From Squalus acanthias (lineage: Eukaryota), in assembly GCA_030390025.1 (NCBI GenBank), contig CM059431.1:126668001-126732000 (forward strand): 64,000 bases of DNA, read 5' to 3'. Every line of letters starts with the position of its first letter. Position 1 is the first letter of the stretch. The notes beneath the pieces were generated by a model that did not search any database, was not told where the DNA came from, and saw only the letters and a program-made list of their open reading frames with translations. The translations under genes and the position numbers were made by a program. Shown here one piece after another: positions 2,971 through 60,414 of this stretch.

Positions 2971-3450
2971 AAAACTCTAACAGGTTTGTCAAACATGATT
3001 TCCCTTTCATAAATCTGTGTTGACTCTGCCCAATCCTATTGTTATTTCCTAAGTGCCTTATTACCACATCCTTAATAATAGATTCTAGCATTTTCCTACT
3101 ACTGTTGTTAGGCTAACTGGTCTGTAGTTGTCCTTTTTCTCTCACCCTCCTTTTTTAAATAGTGGCGTTATATTTTCTACTTTCCAATCCGCGAGAGCCA
3201 TTCTAGAATCTATGGAATTTGGGGAAATGACAACTAATGCATCCACTATCTCTATAGCCACCTCTTTCATAACCCTCGGATGTAGGCTATCAGGTCATGG
3301 GGATTTATTGGCTTTCAGTCCCATTAATTTCTCAAGTACTATTTTTTTACTATTACTAATTTCTTTCAGTTCCTCATTCTCGCTAGACCCTTGGTTCTCC
3401 ACTATTTCCAGGAAGTTTTTTGCATCTTCTTCCATGAAGACAGACACAAA

Positions 3451-5649: not shown

Positions 5650-6609
5650 TTAGTTTTAAGCCCTGTCTACTGTCCTAGTTATTTGGTTCACCAGGACACT
5701 GGTCCCAGCCCGGTTTAAGTGTAGCCCGTCCCAACGGAACAGCTCCCTCTTTCCCCAGTATTGGTGTCAGTGCCCCATGAACTGAAACCCCTTCCTCCCA
5801 CATCACTCTTTGAGCCACACATTTAAACCTCTAATCTGTTTGTCCCTATGCCAATTTTCACATTGCTCAGGTAACAATCCAGAGATTATTACCTTTGAGG
5901 TTCTGCTTTTTAATTTGGATCCTAGCTCCTCAAGCTCCCTCAGCAGAACCTCATGCCTAGTTCTACCTATGTCGTTGGTTCCTATGTCGATCACGACAAC
6001 TGGATCCTCCCTCTCCCACTCCAAGTTCTTCTCCAGCTGCGAGGAGATGTCTTTAACCTTGGCACCAGGCAGGCAACACAACCTTCGGAACTCTCGGTCG
6101 CGGCTGCAGAGAACAGTATCTATCCCCCTGACTATACTGTCTCCTACCACAACTACATTCCCTTTCACTCCTCCCACCTGAATGGCCTCCTGCACCATGG
6201 TGCCATGGTCAGCTTGCTCATCCATCCTGCAGGCTTTTCCCTCATCCACACAGGCAGCATGAACCTCATATCTGTTGGACAAGGGCAAAGGCTGAGGCTC
6301 CTCCAGCAATGCACCTTGGGTTCCCTTACCTGCCTGAGTTGCAGTCACACCCTCCTGTCCCTGACCACTAAGCAGACCTGTACCACTACCTAACCTAAGG
6401 GGTGTGACTGCCTCCTGGATCAAAGTGTCCAGATAACTCTCCCCATCCCTGATGCCCCGCAATGTCTGCACCTCAGAATCCAGCTCAAAAACTCTGAGCT
6501 GAAATTCCTCAAGATGCAGGCACTTACTGCAAACGTGGTTGTCCGGGATCATAATGCTCTCCACAAACTCCCACAAGCTGCAGTTGCAGCACACCACCTG
6601 CACTGCCAT
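5650..6609 (-). pseudogene. CR1 ORF1: N-terminal Cys zinc-finger, coiled coil and SGNH esterase domain
   Basis: CCNC...CSKC, VVGDSIVRG, IGTNDIG and downstream WDGLHLN; in-frame stop at 5803. Confidence 0.85.
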
Positions 6610-6882
6610 CCTTATATGACCTTGTTTTATTTAATTAAAAGTAATGAAATTTGTAATTAGGTAACTTAGTTTACAGTGTTGTTTCTTGACTACTTACTTG
6701 ATCTAGATTAAGCTAAGGGTACTGAAATTAAATATCTACCTATAACACAAAGCACTACAAGTAGTGTAGGCAAAAAGCCGCAACTCCTTCCCCCTCTTCT
6801 CTGAATTCCCACTCTTTCCAAATTCCCAAATAAAACACTCTGTTCAAGTCCACTTCCTTTAATCCTGCTCTGTGCAGAATGC

Positions 6883-22997: not shown

Positions 22998-24167
22998 AAC
23001 TAGTGGTGTTCCGCAGGGGTCAGTGCTGGGTCCCCAACTCTTCACAATCTATATTAACGATTTGGAGGAGGTGACCGAGTGTAACATATCAAAGTTTGCA
23101 GATGATACTAAGATGGGAGGGAAAGTAGTGAGTGAGGAGGACATAAAAAATCTGCAAGGGGACATAAACAGGCTAAGTAAGTGGGCAGAGATTTGGCAGA
23201 TGGAATACAATACTGGAAAGTGCGAGGTTATGCACTTTGGCAGGAAAAATAGTAGAGCAAGTTATTATCTAAATGGCAAGAAACTGGAAAGTACTGAAGT
23301 ACAAAGGGATCTGGGGGTCCTGGTGCACAAAACTCAAAAGGTTAGTATGCAGGTGCAGCAAGTGATTAAGAAGGCCAATGGAATGTTGGCTTTCATTGAT
23401 AAGGGGATAGAATATAAAAATAGGGAGGTATTGCTTCAGTTGTGCAAGGTATTGGTGAGACCACACCTGGAATACTGCATACAGTTTTGGTGTCCATACT
23501 TAAGAAAAGACATACTTGCTCTCGAGTCAGTACAAAGAAGGTTCACTCGGTTAATCCCGGGGATGAGGGGATGGACATACGAGGAGAGATTGGGTAGATT
23601 GGGACTCTACTCATTGGAGTTCAGAAGAATGAGAGGCGATCTTATTGAAACATATAAGATTGTGAAAGGGTTGGATCGGGTGGATGCGGGGAGGATGTTC
23701 CTGATGATGGGTGAAACTAGAACTAGGGGGCATAGTCTTAGAATAAGGGGCTGCTCTTTCAAAACTGAGATGAGAAGGAACTACTTCACTCAGAGGGTGG
23801 TAGGTCCATGGAATATTATGCCCCAAAAAGCTGTAGAAGCTACATCATTACATAAATTTAAAACAGAAATAGACAGTTTCCTAGAAGTAAAGGGAATTAA
23901 GGGTTACGGGGAGCGGGCAGGAATTTTGGACATGAGTCTAGGTTCGGATCGGTCATGGCCCTGTGGGTAGCATAGCGGGCCCAGGGGCCATGTAGCCTGA
24001 TCCTGCTCCTATTTCGTGTGTCCAATTCTGTTAGGTTCAGGAGATGGTTCTGTGATAGTAGATTGGCGGTTAGGATCAGATCAGCCATGATCTTATTGAA
24101 TGGCGGAGCAGGCTCGAGGGGCCGATTGGCCTACTCCTGCTCTTATTTCTTATGTTCTTATGTTCTT
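22998..24167 (+). mobile_element. 5'-truncated CR1 (RT C-terminal ORF 23023-23970 open)
   Basis: KFADDTK, RPHLEYCIQFW; (TTCTTATG)n tail. Confidence 0.92.
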
Positions 24168-30744: not shown

Positions 30745-32990
30745 CAACAACAACAACAAAAATAACTTGGATTTATATAGCGCCTTTAACTTAGTAAAAC
30801 ATCCCAAGGCGCTTCACAGGAGTATAATAAGACAAAAAAATTGACACTGAGCCACATAAGGAGAAATGAGGGCAGGTGACCAAAAGCTTGGCCAAAGAGA
30901 TAGGTTTTAAGGAGCGTCTTAAAGGAGGAAAGAGAGGTAGCGAGGCAGAGAGGTTTAGGGAGGGAATTCCAGAGCACAGGGCCTAGGCAACAGAAGGCAC
31001 GGCCACAATGGTTGAGCATTTATAATCAGGGATGCTCAAGAGGGCAGAATTAGAGGAGCGCAGATATCTCGGGGGGTTGTAGGGCTGGAGGAGATTACAG
31101 AGATAGGAAGGGGCGACGCCATGGAGGGATTTGAAAAAAAGGATGAGAATTTTGAAATTGAGGCTTTGCTTAACTGGGAGCCAATGTAACTCAGCGAGCA
31201 CAGGGGTGATGGGTGAACGGAACTTGGTGCGAGTTAGGACACGGGCAGCCAAGTTTTGGATGACCTCAAGTTTACGTAGGGTAGAATGTGGGAGGCCAGC
31301 CAGGAGTGCGTTGGAATAGTCAAGTCTAGAGGTAACAAAGGCATGGATGAGGGTTTCAGCAGCAGATGAGCTGAGGCAAGGGCGGAGACGGGCAATGTTA
31401 CGGAGGTGGAAATAGGCGGTCTTAGTTATGCTGCGGATATATGGTCGGAAACTCATTTCAGGGTCAAATATGACATCAAGGTTGTGAACAGTGCGGTTCA
31501 GCCTCAGACAGATGTTAGAGAGAGCAACGGAGTCAGTGGCTAGGGAACAGAGTTTGTGGCGGGGACCAAAAACAATGGCTTCGGGCGTCCCAATATTTAA
31601 CTGGAGAAAATTTCTGTTCATCCAGAACTGTGTGTCTGACAAGCAGTCTGACAAGTTAGAGACTGTGGAGGGGTAGAGAGACATGGTAGTGAGGTAGAGC
31701 TGGGTGTCGTCAGCGTACACGTGGAAACTGACGCTGTGTTTTTGGTTGATGTCACCAAGGGGCAGCATGTAGATGAGAAACAGGAGTGGGCCAAGGATAG
31801 ATCCTTGGGGGACACCAGAGGTAACGATGTGGGAGCCGGAAGAGAAGCCATTGCAGGTAATTCTCTGGCTACAATTAGATAGATAAGAATGGAACCAGGC
31901 GAGTGCAGTCCCACCAGCTAGATGACGGTGGAGAGGCGTTGGAGAACAATGGAGTGGTCAACCGTGTCACAGGCTGCAGACAAGTCAAGAAGGACGAAGA
32001 GGGATAGTTTACCTTTGTCACAGTCACAAAGGATGTCATTGTGACTTTGATGAGAGCTGTTTCGGTACTGTGGCAGGAGCAGAAGCCTGATTGGAGGGAT
32101 TCAAACATGGAGTTGCGCGAAAGATGAGCACAGATTTGGGAGTCGACAACATGTTCAAGGACTTTGGAGAGGAAAGGGAGGTTGGAGATGGGGTGGTAGT
32201 TTGCAAGGATGGAGGGGTCAAGGGTTTTTTTGGAGGTGAGGGGTGATGAAGGTAGATTTGAGGGAGAGGGGGTCAGTACCTGAGGAGAGAGAAACGTTAA
32301 CAAGTTCATCTCACATGGGAGATCTGTGTGGAGTTTGCACATTCTCCCCGTGTCTGCGTGGGTTTCCTCCGGGTGCTCCGGTTTCCTCCCACAGTCCAAA
32401 GATGTGCGGGTTAGGTTGATTTGGCTATGATAAATTGACCCTTAGTGTTAGGGGGGGATTAAATACGTGGGGTTACAGGGATAGGGTGGGATATGTGTCG
32501 GTGCAGGCTCGATGGGCCGAAATGGCCTCTATCTGCACTGTGGGGATTCTGTGATTCTGTGTGATTCTGGGAGCCAGAAAAGTAAGTTGGGTGGTCAGCA
32601 GTTTGGTGGGAATAGGGTCGAGGGAGCAGGAAGTGGGTCTCATGGACAAGATGAGTACAGAGAGGTCATGAGGGGAGGTCGGAGAGAAACTGGAGAAAGA
32701 TGTGAGTTCAGGGCTAGGGCAGGCAGGCACCTTATAGGAAGCTTGGCCTGGTGGGCTAGGGCAAGGAATGGAAGTGGCAGAGGCAGCTGAACGGATGGTC
32801 TCAATCTTAGAGACAAAAAAGTCCATGAGCTCCTCACACTTGTTGTCGGATGTGAGGGTGGAGGAGACAGGGGAGTAGGGTTTAAGGAGACGGTTAACAG
32901 TAGAGAATAAATGCTGGGGTTTATCTTTGCATTTCAAAATGATTCTGGAATAGTGAGCAATTTTGGCCGACGAGAGCAGGACCTGATAAT
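30745..32990 (-). mobile_element. L2 LINE (RT 3' half), decayed
   Basis: YADDTQLY, LIHAFVTSRLDYSN, LHWLPV, CSLDPIPT; GGCGCTATATAAAT and (TTG)n tail. Confidence 0.9.
32320..32567 (+). mobile_element. HE1-like V-SINE (5'-truncated) inserted in the L2
   Basis: V-domain TGTGTGGAGTTTGCACATTCTCCCCGTGTCTGCGTGGGTTTCCTCCGGGTGCTCCGGTTTCCTCCCACAGTCCAAAGATGTG; CR1-type tail. Confidence 0.85.
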
Positions 32991-34332: not shown

Positions 34333-35096
34333 GGCCCAGAAATTAGGCTCCCTGGCTTCCCGCGGGTGCAATGATCACACGCGCACCTACCTACTGCGCC
34401 TGCCGTTGACCTCTAGGCCCACGGGGACTTCAGCTCCTGGGCCTCCTGCAGCAGCCGGCGCGCAGTGCTTGTGTATCCCAGGGGTGTAGTTAGTGCGATG
34501 TGTCCCCTGGGATCATGTGGGCCATGGAGAGCCAATGGCAGCAGACCATCTTTCATTCATAGATTTGACAGACCTGTCAAATCTATGAATTGAAATCGGC
34601 CCCAAAACAACACCTAAACTTCAAATATTTTTTTTTTAAAAACCATCACATTTTTAAAATAACTATAAGTTAAATAAATTAACTACTTTAAACAAAAATT
34701 TTAATTTTTGTCAAAATTAAAATACTTTTTAACAGTGCTAAAAATAAACTTACCTTTCTTTAAAGTATCTAAAAAAGATAAACCTGTTGAAAAAGTTTTT
34801 AAATTGTAATTAATTAACCACTTACCTTGTAAAAAAACGGGTCTTGCACCTCCTTTTTAAAAGCGCAGCTTCTTCCATACTTACCTTCCCGGAGAAACCT
34901 GAAAAAAACCCTAAGTTCGCTGCATGCGCGCAGCCTCTCCCACGCACGCGGTTCATCTCTGAACCACTCCCTTCACGAAACCGGAAGTTCCGTTTTCCCG
35001 CGCATGCACAGTACATGCAGGAAACCGGCACTTCAGGAGGCCTTACGGGTGAGTACACAGCGCGTACTCACCCAGCAAGTGCCTAATTTCTGGCCC
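34333..35096 (+). mobile_element. Harbinger-type MITE inserted in CR1
   Basis: TIRs GGCCCAGAAATTAGGC / GCCTAATTTCTGGCCC; flanks ATT/AAT; subterminal sequence shared with the end of the element at 54578-57816. Confidence 0.85.
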
Positions 35097-35445
35097 AATA
35101 AATAAACTAATGAAACTTAAAGAGGATAAAACCCCTGGTCCGGATGGATTATATCCGTGCATTTTAAAAGAATCTAGGGAAGAGATTGTAGAGGCATTAC
35201 TACACATATTTAGAAATTTGTTAGAAAAAGGTGTAGTGCCATGTGGACTGGCGGACAGCTAACATAATATCTATATTTAAGAAGGGCGATAGAACATGTC
35301 CAGGGAACTATAGATCAGTCAGCTTAACATCGGTGGTAGGAAAAATAATGGAATCCCTACTAAAGGAGAAAATAGAAGAACATCTAAAAAGCAAAAATAT
35401 AATAATGAATAGTCAGCATGGATTTCAAAAGGGAAAGCTTTGTTT

Positions 35446-36930
35446 TGTAATAAGATAAACCATATTCCAAGAAATACATCATCCTATGCACAGATTTTGA
35501 TAATATTAATACATGACATACTGGGTTTAAAAGTCTGGAAAGCCTCGGCGACACAGGCTGCAAACACAATACATGCTTCTGAGATAAGATGGATTGTTAA
35601 CACAAAGCTGTGAAAACAAGCTTTGAAATGGGAATTGGTTTGTAAATACAGAGACAAAGCCCCTTTTGAAGCAAACCATTGGTGCTTCCAGAATGTCTAG
35701 AGTTTGGAACAAAACAATAGCAATGCCCAAGTAAAGTGTCAAAATCTAACACATCGAACAGGTGCACAGAACATTAAAAAAAACAAGTGCCTTTGAAATA
35801 ATGACATCAAGTAAAAGAAATACCTGCCGTAAAATAGTTTTATGTTAAACTTAGAAACAGGAAACACAATTAAATATGCAACCAATTGAAATAGCTAAGA
35901 AATACAAAAAACACCCTGGTTGAAGTGTTTTTGATTTACAAGTTGTAAAAGGTACAAATAGGAAGACTTTGAAAATATAATATCAATAGATGACAAGAAG
36001 CAATTACATTGTGTTTGTATTGAACTTGGAACACCATGGAGTCATGACGTCTGGCTTACAAGCAGTTAAGTGATATTAAGAATTCAATAGAAAGACTTCC
36101 TAAGAATAGCATCAAATAGATAAATCGACAATAATCATAAAAATGATAAGTTTTCGAAACACCGAAAGGTAGAGACAGAATTCTAAAAGTTGACAACTGA
36201 AATGACAGTAAGAATAGAAAAGAATTCAATAAAGAATCACTAGAGATAATTAGATTACATCAGCAGGAAACATCAAAGAAAATACCACTAAAAAAAGGTA
36301 TAAAAATAGAGCTTTTCAGATAGAGAGTCAGAAGTCACTGGAAGGGCAAGCGTTTCTCAACTTCACAGGCATACTCTGTAAGTTTTCAACTCTGAGTCTC
36401 GGAAAATCAAGGTATTTGATTTTGGTGGATATTCTGGATTAAGAAATAAGTAGAAGTGTGGAAATGTAACAAATTTAAGATTTGACAATAAGGATCTCTG
36501 ATAAGAAATGTAAACTATTTGTATTTTGAACGGTTAAAGTCGCGATTGACTTATCAGCTGTGAACTGAATGTCGGCTCTTAAATAAATCTATATATTTTT
36601 AGAATTGTATCAAGTTGTATTTCTGTATCAACCTCGCAAACTCAATTTCTGTAAACTCTTCAGAGAGGAGTTGCAGAATTCTGGAGGGTTTTCCAGACCC
36701 TCATAATATCCGGAAGGTTACAGTCTAGTTAAACTTATTAAAAGTGCTATCCGGAGGACGGTAACATCTTCAGGCCGTTTCTTTCCTTTAGGGAGAGATA
36801 GTCTGAACTTTAGACCCAATTAAACGTCTTTAGGATTCGGCTACCGCTAACTTTAGTTGAAAGTGAATGTCTGGGCTTACGCCTGATCTGGGGTAGTCCG
36901 AAAGGGCTAGGACTTGTAATTATCCCTTCA
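35446..36930 (+). repeat. 5' LTR (1485 bp)
   Basis: TGTAA...CCTTCA; direct repeat of 41938-43423; TATAAAA 36299-36305, splice donor GTAAGT 36378, AATAAA 36582-36587. Confidence 0.97.
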
Positions 36931-36932
36931 GT

Positions 36933-36950
36933 TGGTGCCCAACGTGTGTG
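36933..36950 (+). promoter_or_regulatory. Primer-binding site, tRNA-Lys1,2-like
   Basis: TGGTGCCCAACGTGTGTG versus canonical TGGCGCCCAACGTGGGGC; begins 2 nt after the LTR end. Confidence 0.9.
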
Positions 36951-37193
36951 TTGACGAGTTGATACAGAACCTATACTTATATTTATATCTATATATATCC
37001 TGTAGATTGTTAAGTATAGAAGGAGTGTTTGACTGACAGTGGTACTAAGACCCAGATTTTAGTTTCTAGAGATGACAAGTCCCTGATCAGGCCTTGTAGA
37101 ACTTAAATCGGAACTCCCTCAACATACCATTAAGGTCTAGAAGCTTCTTATAAAGTTCATATTAAACCCTAACTGAGGTTAGGTCCTGACGAA

Positions 37194-37718
37194 ATGGCAA
37201 ACCCTGTCGGAATTGACCAAGTCTTTTTATTAGGAAATTCAAATGATTGTTTTATTAGGGGAAATAATCCTATCCCTGTACCTCCACAAAACCAAGTGAT
37301 AATTTTTGTAATAGAAGGCTTTGAAGCCGAAGAAGCTGTTAGAACTCAAGGCATGATTAATGTTGATCCCCAGAACCAGGGGATACAGAATATCCAGTGA
37401 GATAATCCAAAAAATACTCCAAATCCACTAAATTCCTTAATGATAAGGTGCACACCTGCACAATTGGGAGGCCTAATGAAAGGTGCTCAACAAGGTGATG
37501 ACAACCATGGGCGAATAGCAGGACCCGGAGCAGCCTATGCTCCTGGGGGCCATGGATTCCGGTTAACGTGGCAAGCTCATGATGAAATAAATGACCAGAA
37601 TCTTCGAGAAAACTATGGACAGCTTAGAATCCATATAATAAACGGTCTGACAAACCCCCTAAGGGATCTGGAAAACATAATACCCTCAAGAGGGAGGAAC
37701 AAAAATCAGTTAAAATAA
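37194..37718 (+). pseudogene. gag: gag N-terminal domain remnant (foamy-type); internal TGA, C-terminal part missing
   Basis: ORFs 37194-37400 and 37440-37718 share one frame; first gene after the PBS; distant resemblance by eye to the prototype foamy virus (PFV) Gag N-terminus (NPIPVPPQNQVIIFVIEG, NPLNSLMI, LRIHIING). Confidence 0.65.
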
Positions 37719-37719
37719 T

Positions 37720-40700
37720 TAAAGACAATGCAGCAAATGAAGCTCAGGATCCTGAGGATGAGCAATCCCAGGATTGGAGGCCTGGCACCCAGCCAGGGCC
37801 TCTTGAATTCCCCTTTGCATTGACAAACTTGTCCACAAATACACAAGTGAAGGCCCTGTTTGATACGGGGGCTGATTACACTGTAATAGATCCTGCAATT
37901 ATAAAAACTAAGTGGACAGGTTTGGGAAGTCCAATTTGTAAAAAACCATTAGGGGGATTCACACAAGACGAAAGCAAAATAATAATTTTTTACAAAATAA
38001 CTATTACTATATATGGAATAACGGTGACCCTAGATGTAGGACTGGTACCACAATTGTCCTGTACCCTCATTATAGGACAACCAGACATGCAACATTACCT
38101 TAAAATTTCAACCAAACCTGTAGAAGCATCCACAGACCAGGATGACAGGGAAAATCATGTTCGAACACAGCTTGATCGAACTTGCCTAGAGGGGGGAGGT
38201 AAAGACCTCCTCGAGAAACTAATAAATAAATACTACCCGTATCTACAACGCCATCCAAATCAATGTGGAAAGATAGACATCAAACCCCACCCCCTTGATG
38301 CTGGCTGGCACAAGCCTAAAAAACAGTGACCTATTCAAGACCACAAAGGAAAAATAGATCTCCTAACAACGCTCAAAGAACTAACAGAACAAGGTGCCTT
38401 AATCAAAATGGCATCTAGAACTAATTCACCATTGTTTGGTGTTGCTAAACCAGATGGGAGGTGGAGATTAGTGGTCGATTATACAGCCTTAAATAAGGTA
38501 ACAGCCCCACATACTGCACAACAGCAAAATTCCACAGCCCTTCTCTCTGGAGTCACGAGGGAAAAATATAAATCTTGTATTGATCTAGCAAACGGCTTCT
38601 GGTCACATCCAATCGAAAAAGCTGATTGGCCAAAAACAGCGATGACCGGACCCGATGGTCATCAGCACTGCTGGACCAGATTGCCCCAGGGATTTCAAAA
38701 CAGCCCCGTTCTCTTTTCAGCCCACATCATTGACCTTTTAAAAGACCTACCTAACGTCAATTCTTATGTGGACGATATATATCTGTCACATGACAATCTC
38801 CAAGAGCACTTGAAAGCCATTGATAGTGTTTTATCCAGACTTACAACTGCTGGGTACTTAATCAACATAAAAAAGAGTCAACTAGTTCAGGAAGAGGTAG
38901 ATTTTCTGGGCCTGCGAATAACTGGAAACAGTAGAGGATTAACTCAATCCTATAAAGAAAAATTAGCCACCATTCAATATCCTAAAACTCTGAAAAATCT
39001 GCAAGCCAGTTTAGGACTTCTGAATTTTGCTCGATCCTTCACGCCAACCTTTGCCGAGCTCTCAGCCCCCCTGTATGCTAGAGTGGGCGATGCAGCAAAA
39101 GGACCATTCATATTTTCACCAGACGATTACTCAAAATTGCAACAATTATGCCGAGAGGTACAAAAAGCCATAGACCTGGAACAGAGAGACCTACAAGTTC
39201 CCCTCAATATTCATCTCAGGTCATCACCTAAAGTAGCAGTTGCAGTTTTTTACAATGAAAAGAGCATAGTGCCCATTCAGTTCCATTCTTATAACTTTTC
39301 CAATGTCGAAAGGAGGTACATTAAAAAAGAAAGGGTCATGACTATGGTAATCCAATGCCTCATCAAGGCACGAACCCTTCCAGGGAAATACCGCATTACC
39401 ATTTATACTGAGATTCCCGATTTAAGATCAGTATTGAGGATGGCTTCTGATGAAAAAAGAGCCACCCAGATCTGATATGATAAATGGGCATCATTCTTGA
39501 ATGATCCTGCACTCATTTTTAAATTCCTCTCCCCGGAAATGGACTTAGAGCATCTCCCCATAATGGAGGATGATGATACTGAGGAGGGAATCAGACAAAT
39601 ACCTATGAGACCGCTTACAGAATACGATCAAGTTATTTACTGTGATGGATCGTCAATGACGATTAAGAAAGAGACATCCCAACAATCGTCAGCTGGGATG
39701 GGGATAGTAGTAGGGACTTTTCAAGATTCCTATTCTTTTTATCCAGAAGAATTACTGTCTATACCCCTTGGCCATAAGACAGCACAATATGCTGAAGCCG
39801 CAGCATTACAATATGCTTTAGAAAAGCTAGACCCTATTAAACCCATACTAATCTGCACGGATTAGTAAACGATTACTACTGTAAAAGAGGATATAACCAA
39901 GATCTAGTTTTCTGGGAACAAACAAATTTTACCAATCATAAGGGTAAACCCATAAAACATAAGTCATTGTGGGAAGATATTCTCCGTTCCAGAATGGAGA
40001 AAAATAATTGTCAGGTGTTTCATGTAAACGGGCATACCACTGGGACAGTACACTCAAAAGGAAACAGCCTTGCAGACGAACAAGCGAAACATTCGGTCTG
40101 CATGACACCCCCTCGAGAGGGGCCTGCCAATGTTAGTGTAATCACTAGGGCAGAATGGGCAGCTAATCAGGATGACAAACTGATTCAGCTATTAGACCCA
40201 ACACAAGAGAATCCACCAGGATATCCACCAAAGTACTCTTACTCGGAAACCCCTATGGGTATTGTACTAGTTAAGTTGCCCAAGGGAAATCGAGAAGTAA
40301 CCCGAGCCACAAACGAGAACAGCTTGTAAAAGAACCTCACGAGGGCATAAGTTAAGCACATTGTGGTGCCAGAAGAACATTCTGCAAATTGACCCCCTTA
40401 TATTGGTGGCCAGGCATGCTTAAAGCCTGTAAAACATACGTGGCAAATTGTGAGCCATGCTATTTGACCAATAAGTCATCACTAATTAAGCCACCACCAT
40501 TGGCTCCTGTGAAAGCTGAAGAGCCAATGGGAAAATTCGTTTGTGTGGATGGATGCACTTCCTTTTGCTGGTTGATCCCCACAAAAACTGTTTCGGAAAA
40601 CGCACTTGCCAGGGCTATTTCTGATATAATTACTGTAGCTGGTGCACCCAAAATCTTACACTCCGATCAAGGTGGAGCCTTTGTATCCAAGGTCTTCAAA

Positions 40701-41300
40701 GACTACTGCGAACAAAGGGGGATTGGCTTAGAGCACAGCACGCCACGTCATCTGCAATCAGCGGGGCTGGTGGAACGTAAAAACCAGGAAGTAAAAAAGC
40801 TATTGGTCAAACTGTTGAGAATCAGGGGGAATAAGTGGACCACCATCATTCTGGAGGTGTAGCTATCACTCAATAATGTGCCCACATCTGCATCAGGGAC
40901 AGTGTCCCCTAAAACTCCATATTATCTAATGTATGGGGTTGAGATGCATACACCGCTTACCCATAGTTCTTTTATTGCCTCTACAGACTCTGAGTCCTTG
41001 ACCCGACAGCGACAGTTAGATTTTAAAAAAGAAGTAACAGAGGAGATTCATCGAATTGATCAGAGGATAAGGGAGGCGAATAGGCAGAAAAAATTGACAA
41101 ATAAAGCATGGCAACCCATAGTAGGAGAATGGGTACAGGAAAAGAAGTTCAAGCAGAAACCTGGTTTAAGACCGCAGTGGAAAAAACCTGTTCAAATACA
41201 TTCTGTTATTAATGAAAGAATAGTTCAAATACATGTTAACCAGCCGAATGGCAAGCATATTCTTAAAACTGTCTCCATAGACAATATCAAGAGATGTCCT
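37720..41300 (+). pseudogene. pol: pol (protease, RT, RNase H, integrase) of foamy type, with stops, two frameshifts and an in-frame deletion
   Basis: PR LFDTGA; RT KPDGRWRLVVDY, DLANGFWSHPI, WTRLPQGFQNSP, YVDDIYLSHD; RH YCDGS, AQYAE, GNSLAD; IN GYPPKYSY, YWWPGM...CEPC, HSDQG, VERKN, LRPQWKKP, TVSIDNIK. Confidence 0.95.
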
Positions 41301-41927
41301 GCAGGATACCGAAAAGGAGGAATACAAGGTGCAGTTGTACACTGTCTTTTAAGACCCAGCTTGGAGCACGACACAGGAAATGGATGCGATCGAATTACTG
41401 ACGATGGAAAGTCAGAAGGTGTCGTCGGCTCTTCTACACGTTGCTTGGCAACGCATCAGGAATTGGATTTGCGAAAAGCAACAGCCGAAACAAGGAAAGA
41501 TCAACGAGTTACTTTAACGAAGGAGGAAGACATCGCGGATAAAGAAGGAATCAACTGAGTGCCCCGCAAGGCCTTTACGAATACAAGCATCTGTACACAC
41601 ACCGGATCGAAAGAACAGCGTGTCGAGCTTCAACTAGTTTCAAATGACGTCTCCTTGACTCGTATGAAGAACTCACCTCTACGGAACGTACATCTGCCGA
41701 TTGGACATTCTAAGTACATGTTGTTTCGCTCATTACATGACTATGTACTTATCATCCTTTTAAATTGTGTACAATTTAAAATAAGGCAAAACATTGTCCC
41801 AGGATGATTTAAAAGGAATTTTCATGTCGCACATGATTGTGCATATAGTGAACTTAATATGCTATTGTAACCTTATGAGTACCATTGACCAAACTCTGCC
41901 CTGATTTTATAAGCTCATCTTTTGGTC

Positions 41928-41937
41928 AAGAGCGGGG
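41928..41937 (+). promoter_or_regulatory. 3' polypurine tract
   Basis: AAGAGCGGGG directly abutting the TG of the 3' LTR. Confidence 0.8.
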
Positions 41938-43423
41938 TGTAATGGAATAAACCATATTCTAAGAAATACATCATCCTATGAACAGATTTTGATAATATTA
42001 ATACATGATATACTGGGTTTAAAAGTCTGGAAAGCCTCGGTGACACAGGCTGCAAACACAATACAGGCTTCTGAGATAAGATGGTTTGTTAACACAAAGC
42101 TGTGAAAACAAGCTTTGAAATGGGAATTGGTTTGTAAATACAGAGACAAAGCCCCTTTTGAAGCAAACCATTGGTTCTTCCAGAATGTCTAGAGTTTGGA
42201 ACAAAACAATAGCAATGCCCAAGTAAAGTGTCAAAATCTAACACGTCGAACAGGTGCACAGAACATTAAAAAAAACATGTGCCTTTGAAATAATGACATC
42301 AAGTAAAAGAAATACCTGCCATAAAATAGTTTTATGTTAAACTTAGAAACAGGAAACACAATTAAATATGCAACCAATTGAAATAGCTAAGAAATGCAAA
42401 AAACACCCTGGTTGAAGTGTTTTTGATTTACAAGTTGTAAAAGGTACAAATAGGAAGGCTTTGAAAATATAATATCAATAGATGACACCAAGCAATTACA
42501 TTGTGTTTGTATTGAACGTGGAACACCACGGAGTCAAGACGTCTGGCTTACAAGCAGTTAAGTGATATTAAGAATTCAATAGAAAGACTTCCTAAGAATA
42601 GCATCAAATAGATAAATCGACAATAATCATAAAAATGATAAGTTTTTGAAACACCTAAAGGTAGAGACAGAATTCTAAAAGTTGGCAGCTGAAATGACAG
42701 TAAGAATAGAAAATAATTCAATAAAGAATCACTAGAGATAATTAGCTTACATCAGCAAGAAACTTCAAAGAAAATACCACTAAAAAAAGGTATAAAAATA
42801 GAGCTTTTCAGATAGAGAGTCAGAAGTCGCTGGAAGGGCAAGCGTTTCTCAACTTCACAGGCACGCTCTGTAAGTTTTCAACTCTGAGTCTCGGGTAATC
42901 AAGGTATTTGATTTCGGTTGATATTCTGGATTAAGCAATAAGTAGAAGTGTGGAAATGTAATGAAATTAAGATTTGAGAATAAGGATCTCTGATAAGAAA
43001 TGTAAGCTATTTGTATTTTGAACGGTTAAAGTCGCAATTGACTTATCAGCTGTTAACTGAATGTCGGCTCTTAAATAAATCTATATATTTTTAGAATTGT
43101 CTCATGTAGTATTTCTTTATCAACCTTGCAAACTCAATTTCTGTACACACTTCAGAGAGGAGTTGCAGAATTCTGGGGGGTTTTCCGGACCCTCATAATA
43201 TCCAGAAGGTTACAGTCTAGTTAAACTTATTAGAAGTGCTATCCGGAGGACGGTAACATCTTCAGGCTGTTTCTTTCCTTTAGGGAGAGGTAGTCTGAAC
43301 TTTAGTCCCAATTAAGCATCTCTAGGATTTGGCTACCGCTAACTTTAGTTGAAGATGAACATCTGGGGAATACGCCTGATCTGGGGTAGTCCAAAAGGGC
43401 TAGGACTTGTAATTATCCCTTCA
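41938..43423 (+). repeat. 3' LTR (1486 bp)
   Basis: TGTAA...CCTTCA followed by GTTT; TATAAAA 42791-42797; AATAAA 43074-43079. Confidence 0.97.
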
Positions 43424-45499
43424 GTTTGACCAACCTAAATTAATTTTTTGAAGAGGTAACAGAGAGAATAGACAAGGGTAATGTAGTAGATGTAATTTAT
43501 CTCGATTTTCAAAAGACCTTTGATAAGGTACCACATAATAGACTAATGAATAAGGTCAGGGAATGTGGAGCCGGGGACAAGTATCAGAATGGATAGCTAG
43601 CTGGCTTCAAGACAGAAAGCAGAGAGTAGGCGTAAAGGGTAGCTATTCAGAGTGGCAGAAGTTGGGAAGTGGCGTTCTGCAAGGATCAGTGCTGGGACCA
43701 CTGTTGTTCACAATTTATATTAACAATTTAGACTTTGGAATCAAAAACACAATTCCTAAATTTGCGGACGACATCAAATTGGGGGGGATAACAATACTGA
43801 GGAGGACTGCAACAAATTACAAGAAGACATTAATAAACTTGCACAATGGGCATATAATTGACAAATGAAATTCAACACAGATAAATGTGAGGTATTACAT
43901 TTTGGTAAAGAAAAATAGGGAGGTCACATATTACTTGGAAAATAAGAATCTAAAAGAGGTAGAGGAGCAAAGGGATCTCGGAGTACAAATACACAAATTA
44001 CTAAAAGTATTGACACAGGTTAACAAGGCCATATAAAAAAAGCAAACCAAGCACTCGGGTTTATTTCTGGAAGGATAGAATTGAAAAGTAGTGAAGTTAT
44101 GCTAAACTTGTATCAAACCGTGGTTAGACCATACTTGGAGTACTGCATACAATTCTGGTCGCCATATTATAAAAAGGATATAGAGGCACTGGAGAAGGTG
44201 CAGAGAAGATTTACAAGGATGGTACCAGAAATGCGAGGGTGTACTTATCAGGAAAGGATGAACGGGCTGGGTCTCTTTTTTCACTTCAAAAGAGAAGACT
44301 GAGGGGCGACCTAATAGAGGTCTTTAAAATCATGAAAGGATTTGATAGAGTAGATACAGAGAGAGTGTTTCCACCGGGGAAGAGCAAAACTAGAAGCCAT
44401 CAATATAAGATAGTCACCAAGAAATCAAATAGGGAATTCAGAAGAAATTTCTTACCCAGAGAGTGGTGAGAATGTGGAGCTCGCTACCACATGGAGTGGT
44501 TGAAGCGAATAGTATAGATGCATTTAAGGGGTGGTTAGATGAGCATATGAGGGAGAAGGGAATAGAGCGTTATGCTGATAGAGTTATATGAGGAAAGACG
44601 GGAGGAGGCTCGAGTGGAGCATAAATGCCGGCATGGACTGGTTAGGCTGAATGGCCTGTTTCTGTGCTGTATATCCTATGTAATCCTATGCAACTTACCA
44701 CTTCAGGACACCCACCTCATAATTGCAACATGCCTGAAAGAAATCAGATGAAGAGACACTGAGGGCACAGTTAACCATTACTGCCTCTGACAGCGCCAGC
44801 CCTTTAGTGCATGTTCACTCCAAGTATTTTCTATCAGCATATGCTATGTGGCTGTCTGCTGATTCAGAGCTTGTGCAACCAGTTCCGCATAACCACTGCC
44901 AGTTACACACACCTCTACTTGTGACTGGGGATGGGAGGGCACTGGCAGATGGGTGTAGGTTGCCTCAGGTATAGTTTGACATTGCCTGACATTGCTCCTG
45001 CTATTACTTCAAAAAACATAAGTAAAGGGGTATTCCAATTGGAAAACCCATTGTCCAAATATCATGGACAAACACAAAAATGGCAGTACCAGAACACAGC
45101 ATAAAGCCTCCTGACCAACTAAGCGGAACAAAAAATAATTTTAAAAAGCAAAACCGATGCAGAAATAGCTTTAAAATGCTGCATATAATATTAATCTTTA
45201 ACTGGACTCCCATAAACTTTACACCCTTGCAGCCCTGGATGGCCATTTTATAAGGATGAGTGGATGACTGAACACAATGCGCTGGTGTAAGACTTGAAAT
45301 TGTGTGGGCATCTAAATAGCATAATTGGTGTCTAATTTTACTATAATTAACTGCAATCTGGTGGGTGTTTCTGGCTCCAGTACAAAATGCGACCAATTAC
45401 ATAGAATATATAGCACAGAAACTATCACAGACCATCCTTTTGTTCTTCCCTCTCCTCTCCCCTTTCCCTGACTCTGTACTTGCTTAAAAACTGTTACAT

Positions 45500-46822
45500 C
45501 ATAGAATCATAGAAATTTACAGCACAGAAGGAGGCCATTCAGCCCATCTTGTCCGTACCGGCCGACAAAGAGCTATCCACCCTCACCCACTTTCCAGCAC
45601 TTGCTCTGTAGCCTTGTAGGTTATGGCACTTCAAGTGCATATCCAAGTACTTTTTAAAATATGATGAGGGTCTCTGCCTCTACCACCCTTTCAGGCAGTG
45701 AGTTCCAAACCCCCACCACCCTCTGGGTGAAAAAGTTTCTCCTCAAATCCCCTCTAAACCTCCGACCAATTACTTTAAATCTATGCCACCTGGCTTTTGA
45801 CCCTTCTGCAAGGGAGATAGGTCCTTCCTATCCATTCTATCTAGAACCCTCATAACGTTATACATCTCAATTAGGTCCCCCCTCAGCCTCCTCTGTTCCA
45901 AAGAAAACAACCCCAGTCTATCCAATCTTTCCTCATAGCTAAAATTCCCCAGCCCAGGCAACATCCTCGTAAATCTCCTCTGCACTCCCTCTAGTGCAAT
46001 CACATCCTTCCTGTAATGTGGTGAACTGCATGCAGTATTCTAGCTGCAACCTAACTAGTGTTTTATACAGTTCAAGCATAACCTCCCTGCTCTTATGGTC
46101 TATGCCTCGGCAAATAAAGGAAAGTATCCCGTATGCTTTCTTAACCACCTTATCTACCTGTCCTGCTAACTTCAGGAATCTGTGGACATGCACTCCAAAG
46201 TCCCTCTGATATTCTGCACTTCCCAGTGTCCTGCCATTTATAGTGTATTCCCTTGCCTTGTTAGCCCTCCCCAAATGCATTACCTCACACTTCTCCAGAT
46301 TGAATTCCATTTGCCACTGTTCTGCCCACCTGACCAGTCCATTGATATCTTCCTGCAGTCTGCAGTTTTCTTCTTCATTATCAACCACACGGCCAATTTG
46401 TGCATCATCTGCAAACTTCTTAATCATACTTCCTACATTCAAGTCCAAATCATTAATATATGCCAAAAAAAGCAAAGGACCCAGTACTGAGCCCTGCGGA
46501 ACCCCACTGGAAACAGCCTTCCAGTCACAAAAACACCCTTCGACCATTACCCTTTGTTTCCTGCCTCTGAGCCAATTTTGGATCCAACTTGCCACTTTGC
46601 CTTGGATCCCATGGGCTTTTACTTTCATGACCAGTCTGCCATGCAGGACCTTATCAAAAGCCTTGCTAAAATCCATATAGACTACGTCAAATGCACTACC
46701 CTCATCGACCCTCCTTGTTACCTCCTCAAAAAATTCAATCAAGTTAGTCAGACATGACCTTCCCTTAACAAATCCATGCTGACTGTCCCTGATTAATCCG
46801 TGTCTTTCTAAATGAAGACTAT
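45500..46822 (-). mobile_element. 5'-truncated CR1
   Basis: RT motifs QHGFVKGRSCLTNL, KFADD; (ATAGAATC)n tail. Confidence 0.9.
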
Positions 46823-46856
46823 CTCTAACTATTTCCAGTTCTCGACCTGACACGTT

Positions 46857-47711
46857 GGCTGGGATCTTACCTGAAGAGGCACGTTGGGGGCGGGACTGCT
46901 GCCACGACGTCCAACGCACAGACGCTATTTTGCATCAATTGGCCTTGTTAAGCCTGCCCTGCGGGCTTGCTGGCCAATTAAGAGAAAGCCGGTGTCAGAT
47001 GACGTCAGTTGATGACGCGTCATCTGCCAGTTTTCTTAAAGGGGCCACGACCATTTCTTTTTGACAGATTATTTTTTCAGTGTTTGACAGCATTGAGGTG
47101 CTGCAAACACTGACAATCACTGTACAAAGCTGAGCACTTGCACCCAGGCTCTCCAGTGACTCTCTCAATAGGTTAAAAGAGATGGCATCTGCAGGTGAGG
47201 TTACAGAAGTGATCTGTCACTGGTGAGAGAGGTTCTCCCAATGAGATGGGATTACACAAACACTTCAAAGCTTGTCACATACAGAAAATTCTAAACACAT
47301 TAAAAATGACTTTCCCAACATTTTCTTACCTCTGCAACTCACCAGTGTCCCATTGGATCCTTCACACCACTTCTGCAGCTGTCATCTATACACAAACATT
47401 ACAGTAGACCCACAGCATGCCACACTTACCCTGGAGGGGTTTCCCGACGTTGGGAAGCCCACAGTAGAAGTGTCAAAATTGGAAAAAGCCTCTTAACTGC
47501 CTGTTAACTGCCTGTTAACAAGCAGTTAAGTGGCTATAATCCTCTTCCCACGGCTAGGAGTCGGGTCCCGGTGCAAATCGGGGACCCGACTCCCGGGAAG
47601 ATTGATTGGAGGCGGGTTGGAAGCGGGTTTGGGACCCGCTGCCAATCTTTTTGATTTTGCCAGCAGTCCCGCCTCCAAACCCGACCCCTGAGCGCCGGCA
47701 AAATCGCCCCT
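46857..47711. mobile_element. Harbinger-like MITE inserted in a Penelope terminal repeat
   Basis: GTT on both sides; removal restores CGACCTGACACGTTAACTCTG; homologous to 3451-4277. Confidence 0.75.
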
Positions 47712-50700
47712 GTTAACTCTGTTTCTCTCTCCACAGATGCTGCCTGAGCATTTCCAGAATTTTCTCTTTTTAGTTCAGATTTCCAGCATCCGCAGTATTT
47801 TGCTTTCATATTAGTTTTTAAGTCACTGCCATTTCTCTTCCAGGAATGCCCATTTGCTCTTCTCTCCAACGGGATTTCTGTTTATCACTTTTACCATATT
47901 CACCTTCATTGCTATTCCGTTTCCCTTCTTGTGTTTGATAAACTATCTGCTAAAACTCGGTTTCACAGCCACATCTCGTTCCTCAGCAACTGTCTCCGGC
48001 ACCCTTTCTGTTGTCTTCCAAATTCCCGTTCCACCTTGACCACACCATCTGGTCACTTACCCTCTCTAGATTTTTTCATTGAGAAAGGCTAGAATGACAT
48101 TGGCTGTCTCAATTTCTATACTCACCTCTCACTCTAACCTACCTCCTTCTGAACTTACAGCGTTCTGTTCTCTCCAGTCCAACCCTAACAATGTGATTAC
48201 ACCCGCTGGCAAGTGTGGCGCTGTTATTGTTTTGCGAACGGAGCTCTACCTTGTGGAGGTTGAATGTCAACTCTCCGACACCTCCTCCTACCTCCCCCTA
48301 AACCATGACTCCACCACCGAACATCAAGCCATCATTTCCCATGCCGTCACTGACCTCATCTCCTCTGGAGATATTCCCCACATGGCCTCCAACCTCATAA
48401 TCCCCCAACTCTACACAACCCATTTCTTCCACCTTCCCAAGATCCACAAACAGGACGACCCTAGTAGACCGATCTTTCCAGCCTGTTCTTGACCCACAGA
48501 ACCTACTTATTTCACTCTCAACTCAATTTTTTTCTCCCCTTGTCCACTCTCTTCCCACCTATATCCACGACACTTCCAACAGTTTCCATATTCCTGGCCC
48601 TAACTGTCTTCTTTTCGTCATGGATGTCCAGTCCCTCTACAACTCCATCCCCCACTAGAATGGCCTCTGGGCCCTATGCTTCTTCCTTGAATGGAAGCCC
48701 AACCAGTCCCCATCCATTACCACCTTCCTGCACCTGGCTGAACTTGTTCTTACATTGAACAACTTCTCCTTTGACTCTATTCAATTCCTCCAAATAAAAG
48801 ATGTTGCTATGGGAAAACATATGAGTCCTAGCTATGCCTGCCTTTTTGTGGGATACGTGGAACATAGAGGAGTACAGAAAGTGCAGGGGTGCAATTCAAA
48901 ATGATATTAGGCAAGCAAAGAGAGAGAATGAAAAATTCTTGACAAGTAAAATCAAGGAAAACCCAAAAATGTTTTATAGATATATTATGAGGAAGAGGAT
49001 AACTAAAGAAAGGGTAGGGCCTATTAGAGATCATGAGGGTAATCTGTGTGTGGAGGCGGGAGACGTCAGTAGGGTTCTTAATGAATACTTTGCGTCTGTT
49101 TTCACAAAGGAGAGGGGCGAAGCAGACATTGCTATCGGGAGGGGGAGGAGTGTGAAATATTAGATGAAATAAACATAGTGAGAGAGGAAGTATTAAGGGG
49201 TTTAGCAGCTTTAAAAGTGGATAAATTCCCAGGCCCGGATGAAATGTATCCCAGGCTGTTAAGCGAAGCAAAGGAGGAAATAGCAGAGGTCCTGACGATC
49301 ATTTTTCAATCCTCTCTGGCTTCAGGTGTGGTGCTGGAGGACTGGAGGACTGCTAATGTGGTACCCTGGTTTAAAAAGGGAGAAAAGGATAGACCGAGTA
49401 ATTACAGGCCAGTCAGCCTAACCTCGGTGGTGGGAAAATTATTGGAAAGAATTCTGAAGGACAGGATAAATCTTCATTTAGAAAGACATGGATTAATCAA
49501 GGATAGTCAGCACGGATTTGTTAAGGGAAGGTCGTGTCTGACAAACTTGATTGAATTTTTTGAGGAGGTAACAAGGAGGGTAGATGAGGGTAGTGCATTT
49601 GATGTAGTGTATATGGACTTTAGCAAGGCTTTTGATAAGGTTCCACATGGCAGACTGGTCACGAAGTTAAAAGCCCATGGAATCCAAGGCAAAGTGTCAA
49701 GTTGGATTCAAAACTGGCTCGGAGGCAGGAAGCAGAGGTTAATGGTTGATGGGCGTTTTTGTGACTGGAAGGCTGCTTCCAGTGGGCTTCCGCAGGGCTC
49801 AGTACTATGTCCCTTGCTTTTTGTGGTATATATCAATGATCTAGACTTGAATATAGGGGGTATGATTAAGAAATTTGCAGGTGATACTAAAATCAGCTGT
49901 GTGGTTGATACTGAAGAAGGAAGCTGTAGACTGCAGGAAGATATCAATAAATTGGTTAGGTGGGCAGAACAGTGGCAATTGGAATTCAATTCGGAGAAGT
50001 GTGAGGTAATACATTTGGGGAGGGCTAACAAGGAATGGGAATACACATTAAATGGTAGGACACTGAGTAGTGTAGAGGAACAAAGGGACCTTGGAGTGCA
50101 TGTCCACAGATCCCTGAAGGTAGCAGGCCAAGTAGATAAGGTGTTTAAGAAGGCATACGGAATACTTGCCTTTATTAGCCGTGGCATAGAATACAAGAGC
50201 AGGGGGGTTATGCTTCAACTGTATAAAACACTAGTTAGGCCTCAGCTAGAGTACTGTGTGCAGTTCTGGTCATCACATTACAGGAAAGATGAGATTGCAC
50301 CAGAGAGGGAACAGTGGAGATTTACAAGGATGTTGCCGGGAGTAGAGAAGCTTAGCTATGAGGAAAGACTGGATAGGCTGGGTCTGTTTTCCTTGGAACA
50401 GAGGAGGTTGTGGGGAAACCTTATTGAGGCGCATAAAATTATGAGGGGCATAGATAAAGTGGATAGAAAGGACCTATTTCACTTCACAGAGGGGTCAAAA
50501 ACCAGCGGGCACAGTTTTAAAGTAATTGGGGGAAGGTTTAGAGGGGATTTGAGGGGACCCAGAGGGTTGTGTGGCTCTGGAACTCACTGCCTGAAAGGGG
50601 GTAGAGGCAGGAACCCTAACCACATTTAAAAAGTACTTGGATGTGCACTTGGGATGCTCTAACCTGCAGGGCTACGGACCAAGAGCTGGGAAGTGGGATT

Positions 50701-60186: not shown

Positions 60187-60414
60187 CAGGGGTCTAGTGT
60201 TACCAGGCTGGCTGGAGACCAGAACAGGCAACAAGGCCTAACCTCGCACTAGCACCCAGGCTAAGCACAGAGCCACAGGTCTCACCCCTTACAGCGCCAA
60301 CTGCCCAACACAAGTAAATTACTTCTAAATAATGTTCAACATTGCATTTCCCTCCCTTACTGTGTGTGGCCAGTTTACAAAAGACAGTGCCTGTGTAAAA
60401 AAAGAAAGACTTTC

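Follow-up and report, generated by a model that had tools for sequence, protein, structure and literature searches.

An endogenous retrovirus of probable foamy type, with two internal deletions, in the genome of the shark Squalus acanthias

Foamy viruses are held to be the most ancient of the retroviruses and slow to endogenise. In cartilaginous fishes, foamy-like endogenous retroviruses (ERVs) have been described from Callorhinchus milii (CmiFLERVs; PMC5512871; PMC4422223) and from Scyliorhinus canicula, with 293 reported elements under the name ERV-Spuma.0-Sca (PMC10699275), and a salamander element, NviFLERV, is reported to have a primer site for tRNA-Asn (PMC5512871). What has been published on the elements of cartilaginous fishes concerns mainly Pol. 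Here we analyze a 64,000-nt stretch of the Squalus acanthias genome (assembly GCA_030390025.1, contig CM059431.1, positions 126,668,001 to 126,732,000 of the forward strand; hereafter the window), in which positions 35446..43423 are occupied by what is very probably a defective provirus of an endogenous foamy-type family related to Spumaretrovirinae, fixed in the germline and carrying two internal deletions. This identification is supported by spumavirus Pfam families, by matches to solved structures, by a phylogeny of the reverse transcriptase (RT), by a primer site for tRNA-Lys(CTT), by a 4-bp target-site duplication (TSD) and by long terminal repeats (LTRs) of considerable length. An earlier note, made from the letters of the window without database searches, had already called the element an endogenous foamy virus, and every test that was run agrees with that call; the span it gave was also right, but the copy is not a complete provirus: it retains only a stump of gag and a broken pro-pol, and has no env.

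The element is delimited by the only long direct-repeat pair found in a repeat search, starting at positions 35446 and 41938. Alignment of the two repeats defines a 5′ LTR at 35446..36930 (1485 bp) and a 3′ LTR at 41938..43423 (1486 bp), both on the + strand, like all of the proviral features given below, and both beginning with TG and ending with CA, in line with the ~1.49-kb TG...CA LTRs that had been read from the letters. The pair differs by 68 mismatches in 1486 aligned columns (40 transitions and 28 transversions, the count reaching one column past the 5′ LTR end) and by 1 gap column, for a Kimura two-parameter (K2P) distance of 0.047, and the internal region between the LTRs is only 5007 bp long. 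A GTTT duplication at 35442-35445 and 43424-43427 directly abuts both LTRs; 4 bp is the target spacing of foamy integrases. The target was a CR1-type non-LTR reverse transcriptase, the upstream half of which lies at 35276..35445 (+ strand, Pfam RVT_1 positions 2-50, its last 4 nt being the left TSD), while the right TSD and the downstream half occupy 43424..43865 (+ strand, RVT_1 positions 100-158 for 43554-43865). The upstream flank scores 27.7 bits against RVT_1, slightly below the cut-off of 29.6, and the downstream flank 30.5 bits. Translation of the upstream flank ends in ...SQHGFQKGKLC, and that of the downstream flank starts with LTNLN*FFEEVTERIDKGNVVDVIYLDFQKTFDKVPH. Removal of one GTTT rejoins the two flank frames exactly and in frame, so that the restoration of the CR1 RT upon excision, which had been proposed from the letters, is borne out.

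A whole CR1-type RT frame elsewhere in the window (49085-50626) is 67% identical to a protein from Hemiscyllium and 65% identical to proteins from both Chiloscyllium and Scyliorhinus, as compared with 43-52% for bird and turtle CR1 proteins, and the labels “CR1” and “probable shark” used in the earlier note are therefore reasonable. We also compared contigs from four sequencing runs (organisms A, B and C; contigs 85-430 nt long) with positions 34700-44100 in a search for an empty orthologous site. The candidate joints, leading from ~35437 to ~43442 in contigs of other organisms, were rejected as paralogous CR1 copies with differing letters between their sides.

Between the LTRs, pol is found at 37628-41558, spread over three frames. 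Its first section, at 37628..38329, comprises the end of gag and the protease, with the active site DTGAD at 37862-37876, and its frame is ended by an in-frame TGA at 38327. The protease matches the Pfam family Spuma_A9PTase (PF03539) with 34.8 bits, and that of a sibling copy does so with 30.4 bits (cut-off 21). RT and the connection domain follow at 38330..39475 in an open frame of 381 aa (RVT_1, 97 bits) that is ended by an in-frame TGA at 39473. RNase H, at 39476..40120, is split by a frameshift at ~39841-39865, with Pfam RNase_H recognised on both pieces. Integrase, at 40170..41558, has an N-terminal extension, a zinc-binding domain, a catalytic core and a C-terminal SH3 domain followed by a tail (Pfam Integrase_H2C2, rve and SH3_11, the last with 38.8 bits), and ends with a TGA at 41556; it is interrupted by a frameshift at ~40329-40356 and a TAG at 40860, and its core lacks ~15 residues, at a place corresponding to residues 129-145 of the solved foamy integrase. 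With its pol broken by stops, by frameshifts and by the integrase-core deletion, this copy is now inert.

The affinities of these remnants were assessed against solved structures and named proteins. The 381-aa RT frame matches the foamy protease-RT structure with an E-value of 8e-96, as compared with 4e-33 for Ty3, ~4e-29 for structures of the murine leukemia virus (MLV) and xenotropic MLV-related virus (XMRV) type, and ~1e-11 for human immunodeficiency virus (HIV). An RNase H piece matches the solved foamy virus RNase H with E 2e-11, and an integrase piece matches prototype foamy virus integrase with E 3e-39 versus ~1e-6 for HIV integrase; the N-terminal extension of integrase, taken alone, gave no separate significant match in the structure search. 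A word-indexed protein search yielded nine proteins at E<=1e-20. Among named proteins, Pro-Pol of simian and bovine foamy viruses comes first (E 1e-122, with 37% identity across 90% of the protease-RT-RNase H read-through), feline foamy virus Pol also being among the best, and prototype foamy virus Pol aligns with the window Pol in segments of 566, 129 and 360 aa, with 39.6%, 29% and 35% identity, respectively. The motifs said in the earlier note to track prototype foamy virus, namely YVDDIYLSHD (38765), DLANGFWSHPI (38582), WTRLPQGF (38672), GYPPKYSY (40219), LRPQWKKP (41166) and TVSIDN (41268), are indeed all six present in the window, and prototype foamy virus Pol (P0004) has them as well, GYPPKYSY corresponding to its GYPKQYTY.

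Motifs such as YxDD and LPQGF are widespread, and RVT_1 and rve are generic Pfam families, all of which could also be seen in an ERV of another class, or in a Ty3/gypsy element, that had arrived at similar motifs by convergence. We consider such a non-foamy origin extremely improbable in view of the matches to spumavirus-specific Pfam families for protease, Gag and Env, of the gap of ~60 orders of magnitude in E-value that separates foamy from non-foamy solved RTs, and of the support of 100/99 for a foamy-like clade that includes the window.

That clade was recovered in the second of two RT trees. The first tree, of 38 rows, was built with IQ-TREE (LG+C20 with posterior mean site frequencies, PMSF) and rooted on 12 Ty3/gypsy rows. 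In it, the window groups with a 1687-aa database protein (P0012) and a fragment from Scyliorhinus torazame (support 96/90), and this group is sister to six mammalian foamy viruses (90/78), followed by a salamander element (98/92) and then by a protein from C. milii (81/47); a second foamy-like clade, of teleost type, includes another S. torazame protein. The second tree, also of 38 rows, contains five non-foamy retroviral genomes from IMG/VR, in which scans had revealed protease, RT, RNase H and integrase and, in one case, structure matches of class-II type. Here the window lies inside a foamy-like clade of 19 of the 38 rows, as the proposed RT-tree check required of a foamy-type Pol, and within it in a clade of 10 rows together with mammalian foamy viruses and the salamander element (97/92); the five retroviral genomes form a clade of their own with ERVs of frogs and turtles (97/94), and Ty3/gypsy also falls outside the foamy-like clade. 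The sister relationship of the window group to the mammalian foamy viruses is uncertain: placing mammals and salamander together costs only 3.29 units of log-likelihood, with p = 0.286 in the approximately unbiased (AU) test, and since that test retains the tree with mammals plus salamander, we make no claim of conflict with the host tree.

A separate observation concerns the S. torazame database entry P0016, annotated as “PR domain-containing protein 11”, in which a foamy-like RT fragment is followed by PRDM and SET domains; it is due either to a chimeric annotation or to the capture of an ERV fragment.

The cis-acting signals were examined next to the coding remnants. The primer binding site, at 36933..36950, is 18 nt long, begins 2 nt past the 5′ LTR and is complementary to the 3′ end of tRNA-Lys(CTT), which equals Lys1,2. 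Compared with the complement of the host tRNA-Lys(CTT) 3′ end plus CCA, it matches at 14 of 18 positions and at 13 of the first 14, which bears out the Lys1,2-like site read by the earlier note. All of the first 14 positions match in five of the seven sibling copies examined, and in one env-bearing copy the site matches at 17 of 18 positions. The tRNA 3′-end pattern derived from the complement of the family primer site has 367 matches in the host genome, and ARAGORN called tRNA-Lys(ctt) at all four of the matched loci that were examined. At the other end of the internal region, the sequence AAGAGCGGGG (41928..41937) abuts the 3′ LTR and, judging by this position, would serve as the polypurine tract. 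A TATA-like TATAAAA at 36299 and an AATAAA at 36582 in the 5′ LTR recur at the same places in the 3′ LTR, and from their positions the 5′ LTR may be divided into a U3 of ~880 nt, an R of ~275 nt and a U5 of ~325 nt. On the side of the host tRNA genes, matches to the tRNA-Lys(CTT) 3′ end form clusters on contigs C21 and C26 and repeat at 1798-bp spacing on C26 (~44311009-44336161), which suggests tandem arrays of the tRNA gene used as a primer by the foamy-like family.

The gag remnant of the window, delimited by comparison with loci L011 and L012, occupies 37194..37642, with an ATG at 37194, an in-frame TGA at 37398 and a deletion junction at 37635-37642. The deletion has taken away ~985 bp of gag and left only the first ~440 nt, which meet the gag end out of frame at a junction with short microhomology. 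When nine sibling copies, and the DNA upstream of five of them, were compared, four had the structure of the window and five departed from it exactly at 37635, four of the latter with an extra segment of ~985 bp at this point. The Gag encoded by siblings is ~515 residues long and matches Pfam Gag_FV_central (PF20672) with 48.7 and 37.3 bits (cut-off 30). It is 23% identical over 371 aa (E 4e-13) to a salamander Gag that itself scores 101.6 bits on Gag_FV_central, and its match to the solved foamy Gag domain is weak (E 0.096). It has no CCHC motif (Cys-His box), and arginine and glycine make up 27% of its last 119 residues. In five of the six distinct gag-bearing copies, gag and pro-pol share the same frame with no stop between them, and the sixth has a single stop there; the related database protein P0012 is likewise one frame of 1687 aa, extending from Gag through integrase. 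With such a layout, the shark family may have made a Gag-Pro-Pol fusion. For mammalian foamy viruses, PMC3185757 describes translation of Pol from a spliced mRNA with no Gag-Pol fusion, and also states that engineered in-frame fusions remain infectious.

The second deletion removed env. Comparison with the env-bearing copy on contig C20, L022 and L023, places it at 41587..41649, where ~3.1-3.2 kb are missing relative to env-bearing siblings. None of the nine sibling copies compared has env, the 3′ LTR coming ~0.4 kb past pol. In the host genome, however rarely, env does persist: Foamy_virus_ENV (PF03408) matches at six loci, the best with 87.8 bits (cut-off 27), every such match being partial, in more than one frame, or interrupted by stops. 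With hmmscan, two frames of one env copy score 77.1 and 47.5 bits on this family, and one of these frames matches the solved foamy Env gp130 with E 7e-13. The pol found upstream of the env loci belongs to the same family, being 84-93% identical to that of the window. As the env loci thereby adjoin family pol, the family has members of gag-pro-pol-env structure, and the window copy is a double-deletion derivative of them. The search for copies with gag and env that the earlier note had recommended was therefore productive, yielding foamy-type Gag in siblings and Env at ~8 loci.

Some peculiarities of individual env-bearing copies may be mentioned here. In L023, the env-bearing copy on C20, ~1 kb of extra sequence precedes the 3′ LTR (oriented positions ~3053-4064) and includes an out-of-order partial LTR match; it may represent an LTR that was rearranged or is present in tandem, or else a U3 that differed in the older sublineage. 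Moreover, two stretches of the L023 env query (939-1234 and 2392-2475) match dozens of unrelated loci at 84-96% identity, and are probably small interspersed repeats that were inserted or captured.

To describe the extent of the family, the host genome (3.71 Gb in 3882 contigs) was searched with segments of the element, and 40 candidates were scored for each query. The pol query (3071 nt) matched 24 other loci over at least 97% of its length with 91-94% identity, plus many partial matches (40 scored of 625 first-look candidates). For the 201 nt spanning the gag junction and the 261 nt spanning the env junction, all 40 scored candidates matched end to end, with 91-98% and 93-97% identity, respectively (396 and 481 first-look candidates). 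A 901-nt query internal to gag was matched at full length by 40 of 40 scored candidates with 94-97% identity (200 first-look), and the 5′ LTR by 40 of 40 with 85-95% identity (5716 first-look). The 2501-nt env query, by comparison, detected substantial env at ~8 loci, the remainder of its 1684 first-look candidates representing short repeats within the query. Each of the two deletion junctions is thus common to at least 39 other copies, and since the same junctions are present in many copies, each deletion was a single event, after which the deleted forms multiplied. Going by the first-look counts, deleted copies may number in the hundreds. Endogenous foamy-type copies are abundant in this genome, and the expectation of rarity with which the element had been introduced does not hold for this host.

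Copy number in a repeat-rich genome might reflect segmental duplication or assembly redundancy rather than transposition, and several matches do lie on small unplaced contigs. Against this, copies are found on many chromosome-scale contigs, and three siblings for which both ends were available have different flanks and their own 4-bp duplications (exact in one, AGGT/AGGT, and matching at three of four positions in the other two). In addition, the two LTRs of one copy are much closer to each other than to the LTRs of different copies, which are only 78-95% alike: own-LTR differences amount to 35/1450 in L033, 45/1504 in L034, 12/372 in L035, 22/1043 in L037 and 17/1332 in L038, that is, 1.3-3.3%. 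Duplication or redundancy as the source of the copies is accordingly scarcely credible, and the sibling copies are independent insertions spread over time. The window copy, with 4.7% between its LTRs, is the oldest of the six measured. Applying published rates for cartilaginous fishes, its insertion would date to ~47 million years (My) ago at 0.5e-9 (PMC10699275) or ~107 My at 2.2e-10 (PMC4422223), and to ~24 My at 1e-9, values which should be taken only as a range.

Sequence data from other sources extend these observations. Contigs of organisms B and C carry the shark foamy-like family at 95% identity or more, and eight organisms (A-H) hold 24-40% of the sampled words. One run, which is only guessed to be RNA, yielded low-depth contigs in 27 of 30 bins, inexact to the window copy (e.g., 14 differences in 429 nt). 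Similarity among copies was also seen to be lower in U3 (72-88%) than in pol (91-94%), so that the LTRs of the family either turned over much faster than pol or were swapped between sublineages.

The following history may be proposed for the family. Full members encode a foamy-type Gag, a pro-pol in the same frame and a foamy-type Env. An env-less form would have arisen once and multiplied in germline cells with its own Gag-Pol, and the doubly deleted form, of which the window copy is one example, would have been copied with Gag, and possibly Pol, supplied by siblings; both of these steps are suggested by the structure of the copies. A foamy-type integrase would have placed the window provirus into the CR1-type element, generating the 4-bp duplication, and the copy would then have decayed through stops, frameshifts and the integrase-core deletion. 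Such a scheme accords with what PMC3185757 states for foamy viruses, the budding of which strictly requires Env and the genomes of which reintegrate in producer cells; an env-less copy with a working gag-pro-pol could therefore be expected to be copied within germline cells. The same source places the sequences required in cis in the region from R to early gag and in the 3′ part of pol. Since the form without gag and env keeps the regions that vectors need in cis, it could be packaged by Gag, and possibly Pol, of its siblings.

The deleted forms could instead have spread by reinfection of the germline, with env-bearing helpers or an exogenous relative providing Env. Env-bearing members of the same family are indeed present in the genome, and the deleted forms keep, by analogy, the parts that foamy vectors need in cis. 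Nevertheless, the env-bearing copies are few (~8 loci), and their pol, taken by piece, is 84-93% identical to that of the window as compared with 91-94% for env-less copies; none of the 11 env matches listed covers the whole of Env, the longest extending over 363 of 982 model positions, and 6 of the 11 have internal stops. Magiorkinis et al. in 2012 reportedly found env-less ERV lineages to be those that reach high copy number, which we also count against reinfection. The reintegration of foamy genomes in producer cells, as reported in PMC3185757, points in the same direction. On this evidence we regard spread by reinfection as unlikely, although with more in its favor than the other alternatives considered here, and prefer amplification of the deleted forms inside germline cells.

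Several points weigh against the interpretation of the element as a foamy-type provirus with such a history. The trees are based on RT only and include no coelacanth, reptile, bird or published fish elements; the five non-foamy retroviral genomes were recognised only by domain content and, for one of them, by PDB matches, while named non-foamy retroviruses, such as those of the gamma-, epsilon-, lenti- or ERV-L type, are absent. The window itself has neither a recognisable Gag central domain nor env, and the corresponding family traits come from siblings that are 84-94% identical to it in pol. Accessory genes comparable to tas and bet were not recognised, no dedicated search having been made for them; in the C20 copy the Env match ends only ~560 bp short of the 3′ LTR, and in neither window LTR is there a + strand frame of at least 80 aa. 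The gag-pro-pol of the family is in one frame in five of six copies, whereas mammalian foamy viruses make no Gag-Pol fusion. Finally, both the choice of retrotransposition over reinfection and complementation in trans are deduced solely from the structure of the copies, and the numbers of first-look candidates should not be equated with verified numbers of copies.

The surroundings of the element are packed with frames of non-LTR retrotransposons carrying AP (apurinic/apyrimidinic) endonuclease and RVT_1 domains, at 4719-5594(-), 22999-23967(+), 30983-31954(-), 45939-46931(-), 49085-50626(+) and 60265-62631(+), of which the RT frame 49085-50626 is open over 514 aa. The 20 longest frames of the window were scanned, and none of them was recognised as a host gene. 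Beside an endonuclease frame, the frame 5803-6627(-) gave a sub-threshold match resembling a GDSL lipase (24.6 bits versus a cut-off of 32.9), and may be an esterase-type ORF1 of a CR1-like element. Two database entries (P0236 and P0308), assigned to Klebsiella pneumoniae and Proteus mirabilis and annotated as “reverse transcriptase family protein”, are 65-69% identical to the shark CR1-type RT and lie on contigs of ~1.6 kb; they look like fish DNA contamination of bacterial assemblies.

What the family may tell about foamy viruses at large can be considered in several respects. A shark set of Gag, protease, Pol and Env, together with a tRNA-Lys1,2 primer site, would date the whole foamy gene set, and not the RT alone, to the split between cartilaginous and bony vertebrates, the alternative being an old transfer between vertebrate classes. 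The one-frame gag-pro-pol bears on the origin of the unusual expression of foamy Pol. The contrast between a few env-bearing copies and dozens to hundreds of env-less or doubly deleted ones would constitute a natural case of a foamy virus acting as an intracellular retrotransposon, and intracellular retrotransposition has been reported for prototype foamy virus in vitro (PMC3185757). For genome annotation, the family is a sizeable LTR repeat of shark genomes that has gone unlabelled until now. Going further, we tentatively consider a broader scenario, possible but in our judgment rather doubtful as a whole, in which sharks would carry their own true foamy lineage, equipped with a foamy Gag and Env, an A9 protease and tRNA-Lys1,2 priming, and with an RT at least as close to the mammalian foamy viruses as are the salamander elements. 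Its one-frame Gag-Pro-Pol would then leave the separate expression of Pol as a later invention of tetrapods or mammals. The lineage would have become an env-less retrotransposon with vector-like derivatives, present in several related hosts and recently active (LTR pairs differing by as little as 1.3%), and its exogenous relatives may still circulate in elasmobranchs.

Comparison with the mammalian foamy viruses (prototype/simian, bovine and feline) reveals a shared A9 protease, an RT that is 42-43% identical, the identical motifs YVDDIYLSHD, WTRLPQGF and TVSIDN, an integrase with both the N-terminal extension and the C-terminal SH3 domain, a tRNA-Lys1,2 site (in most of these viruses), a 4-bp TSD and LTRs longer than 1 kb. 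In siblings of the window copy only, the likeness extends to a foamy-type Env and to a Gag that has the foamy central domain and an Arg/Gly-rich tail but lacks a Cys-His box. The shark family differs in being endogenous, multi-copy and defective, in having a cartilaginous-fish host, and in the single frame that joins gag and pro-pol in five of six copies, whereas Pol of the mammalian viruses comes from its own spliced mRNA.

The salamander elements (NviFLERV, as described in PMC5512871, and the Pleurodeles waltl proteins P0019 and P0175) belong to the same 10-row RT clade (97/92), have a homologous Gag (E 4e-13) with Gag_FV_central and, in the case of Pleurodeles P0175, are predicted to carry RT on the same product as the Gag central domain. 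Their RT is, however, only ~34-35% identical to that of the window, and their hosts belong to a different class.

CmiFLERVs and ERV-Spuma.0-Sca share with the window a cartilaginous-fish host and, as described, a foamy-like position in Pol phylogenies. As these elements are in print, and were compared with the window by description rather than by alignment, the window element might simply belong to one of the two lineages. Their features are difficult to reconcile with this. The RT of the C. milii protein P0014 is 37% identical to that of the window and falls outside its 10-row clade, and ERV-Spuma.0-Sca differs in structure and in reported placement, with an LTR of 866 bp, a gag of 2259 nt, a pol of 2946 nt and an “env” of 1326 nt, grouping with elements of ray-finned fishes and having no detected Gag or Env domain, according to PMC10699275. 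The window motifs and primer strings are also absent from the supplementary text of that paper, which counts for little, as the files may hold no protein sequence. Membership in a published shark lineage therefore seems improbable, and it is plausible that the family is an undescribed lineage, set apart from ERV-Spuma.0-Sca by structure and reported placement, and from the C. milii protein by the tree. In a literature search, with most subscription journals outside its reach, no account of a Gag or Env of foamy type from elasmobranchs turned up.

In its pattern of amplification, with few env-bearing and many env-less copies that share one junction, and with a further internally deleted form that was amplified too, the family resembles env-less ERV “superspreaders” and their non-autonomous derivatives. 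Superspreaders are exemplified by families of the intracisternal A particle (IAP) and ERV-L type, and are beta-like or ERV-L-like. We have met no foamy-type family with such behavior in print, no search having been aimed at that point. Lastly, the form devoid of gag and env is reminiscent of minimal foamy virus vectors: it still has R-U5, the primer site, pol, a leader that includes ~440 nt of gag and, next to the LTR, the polypurine tract. CAS-I and CAS-II, the cis-acting sequences of prototype foamy virus vectors, lie within these retained regions (PMC3185757). The vectors are engineered, while the shark form would be a natural product of deletion, and the likeness is one of position only.

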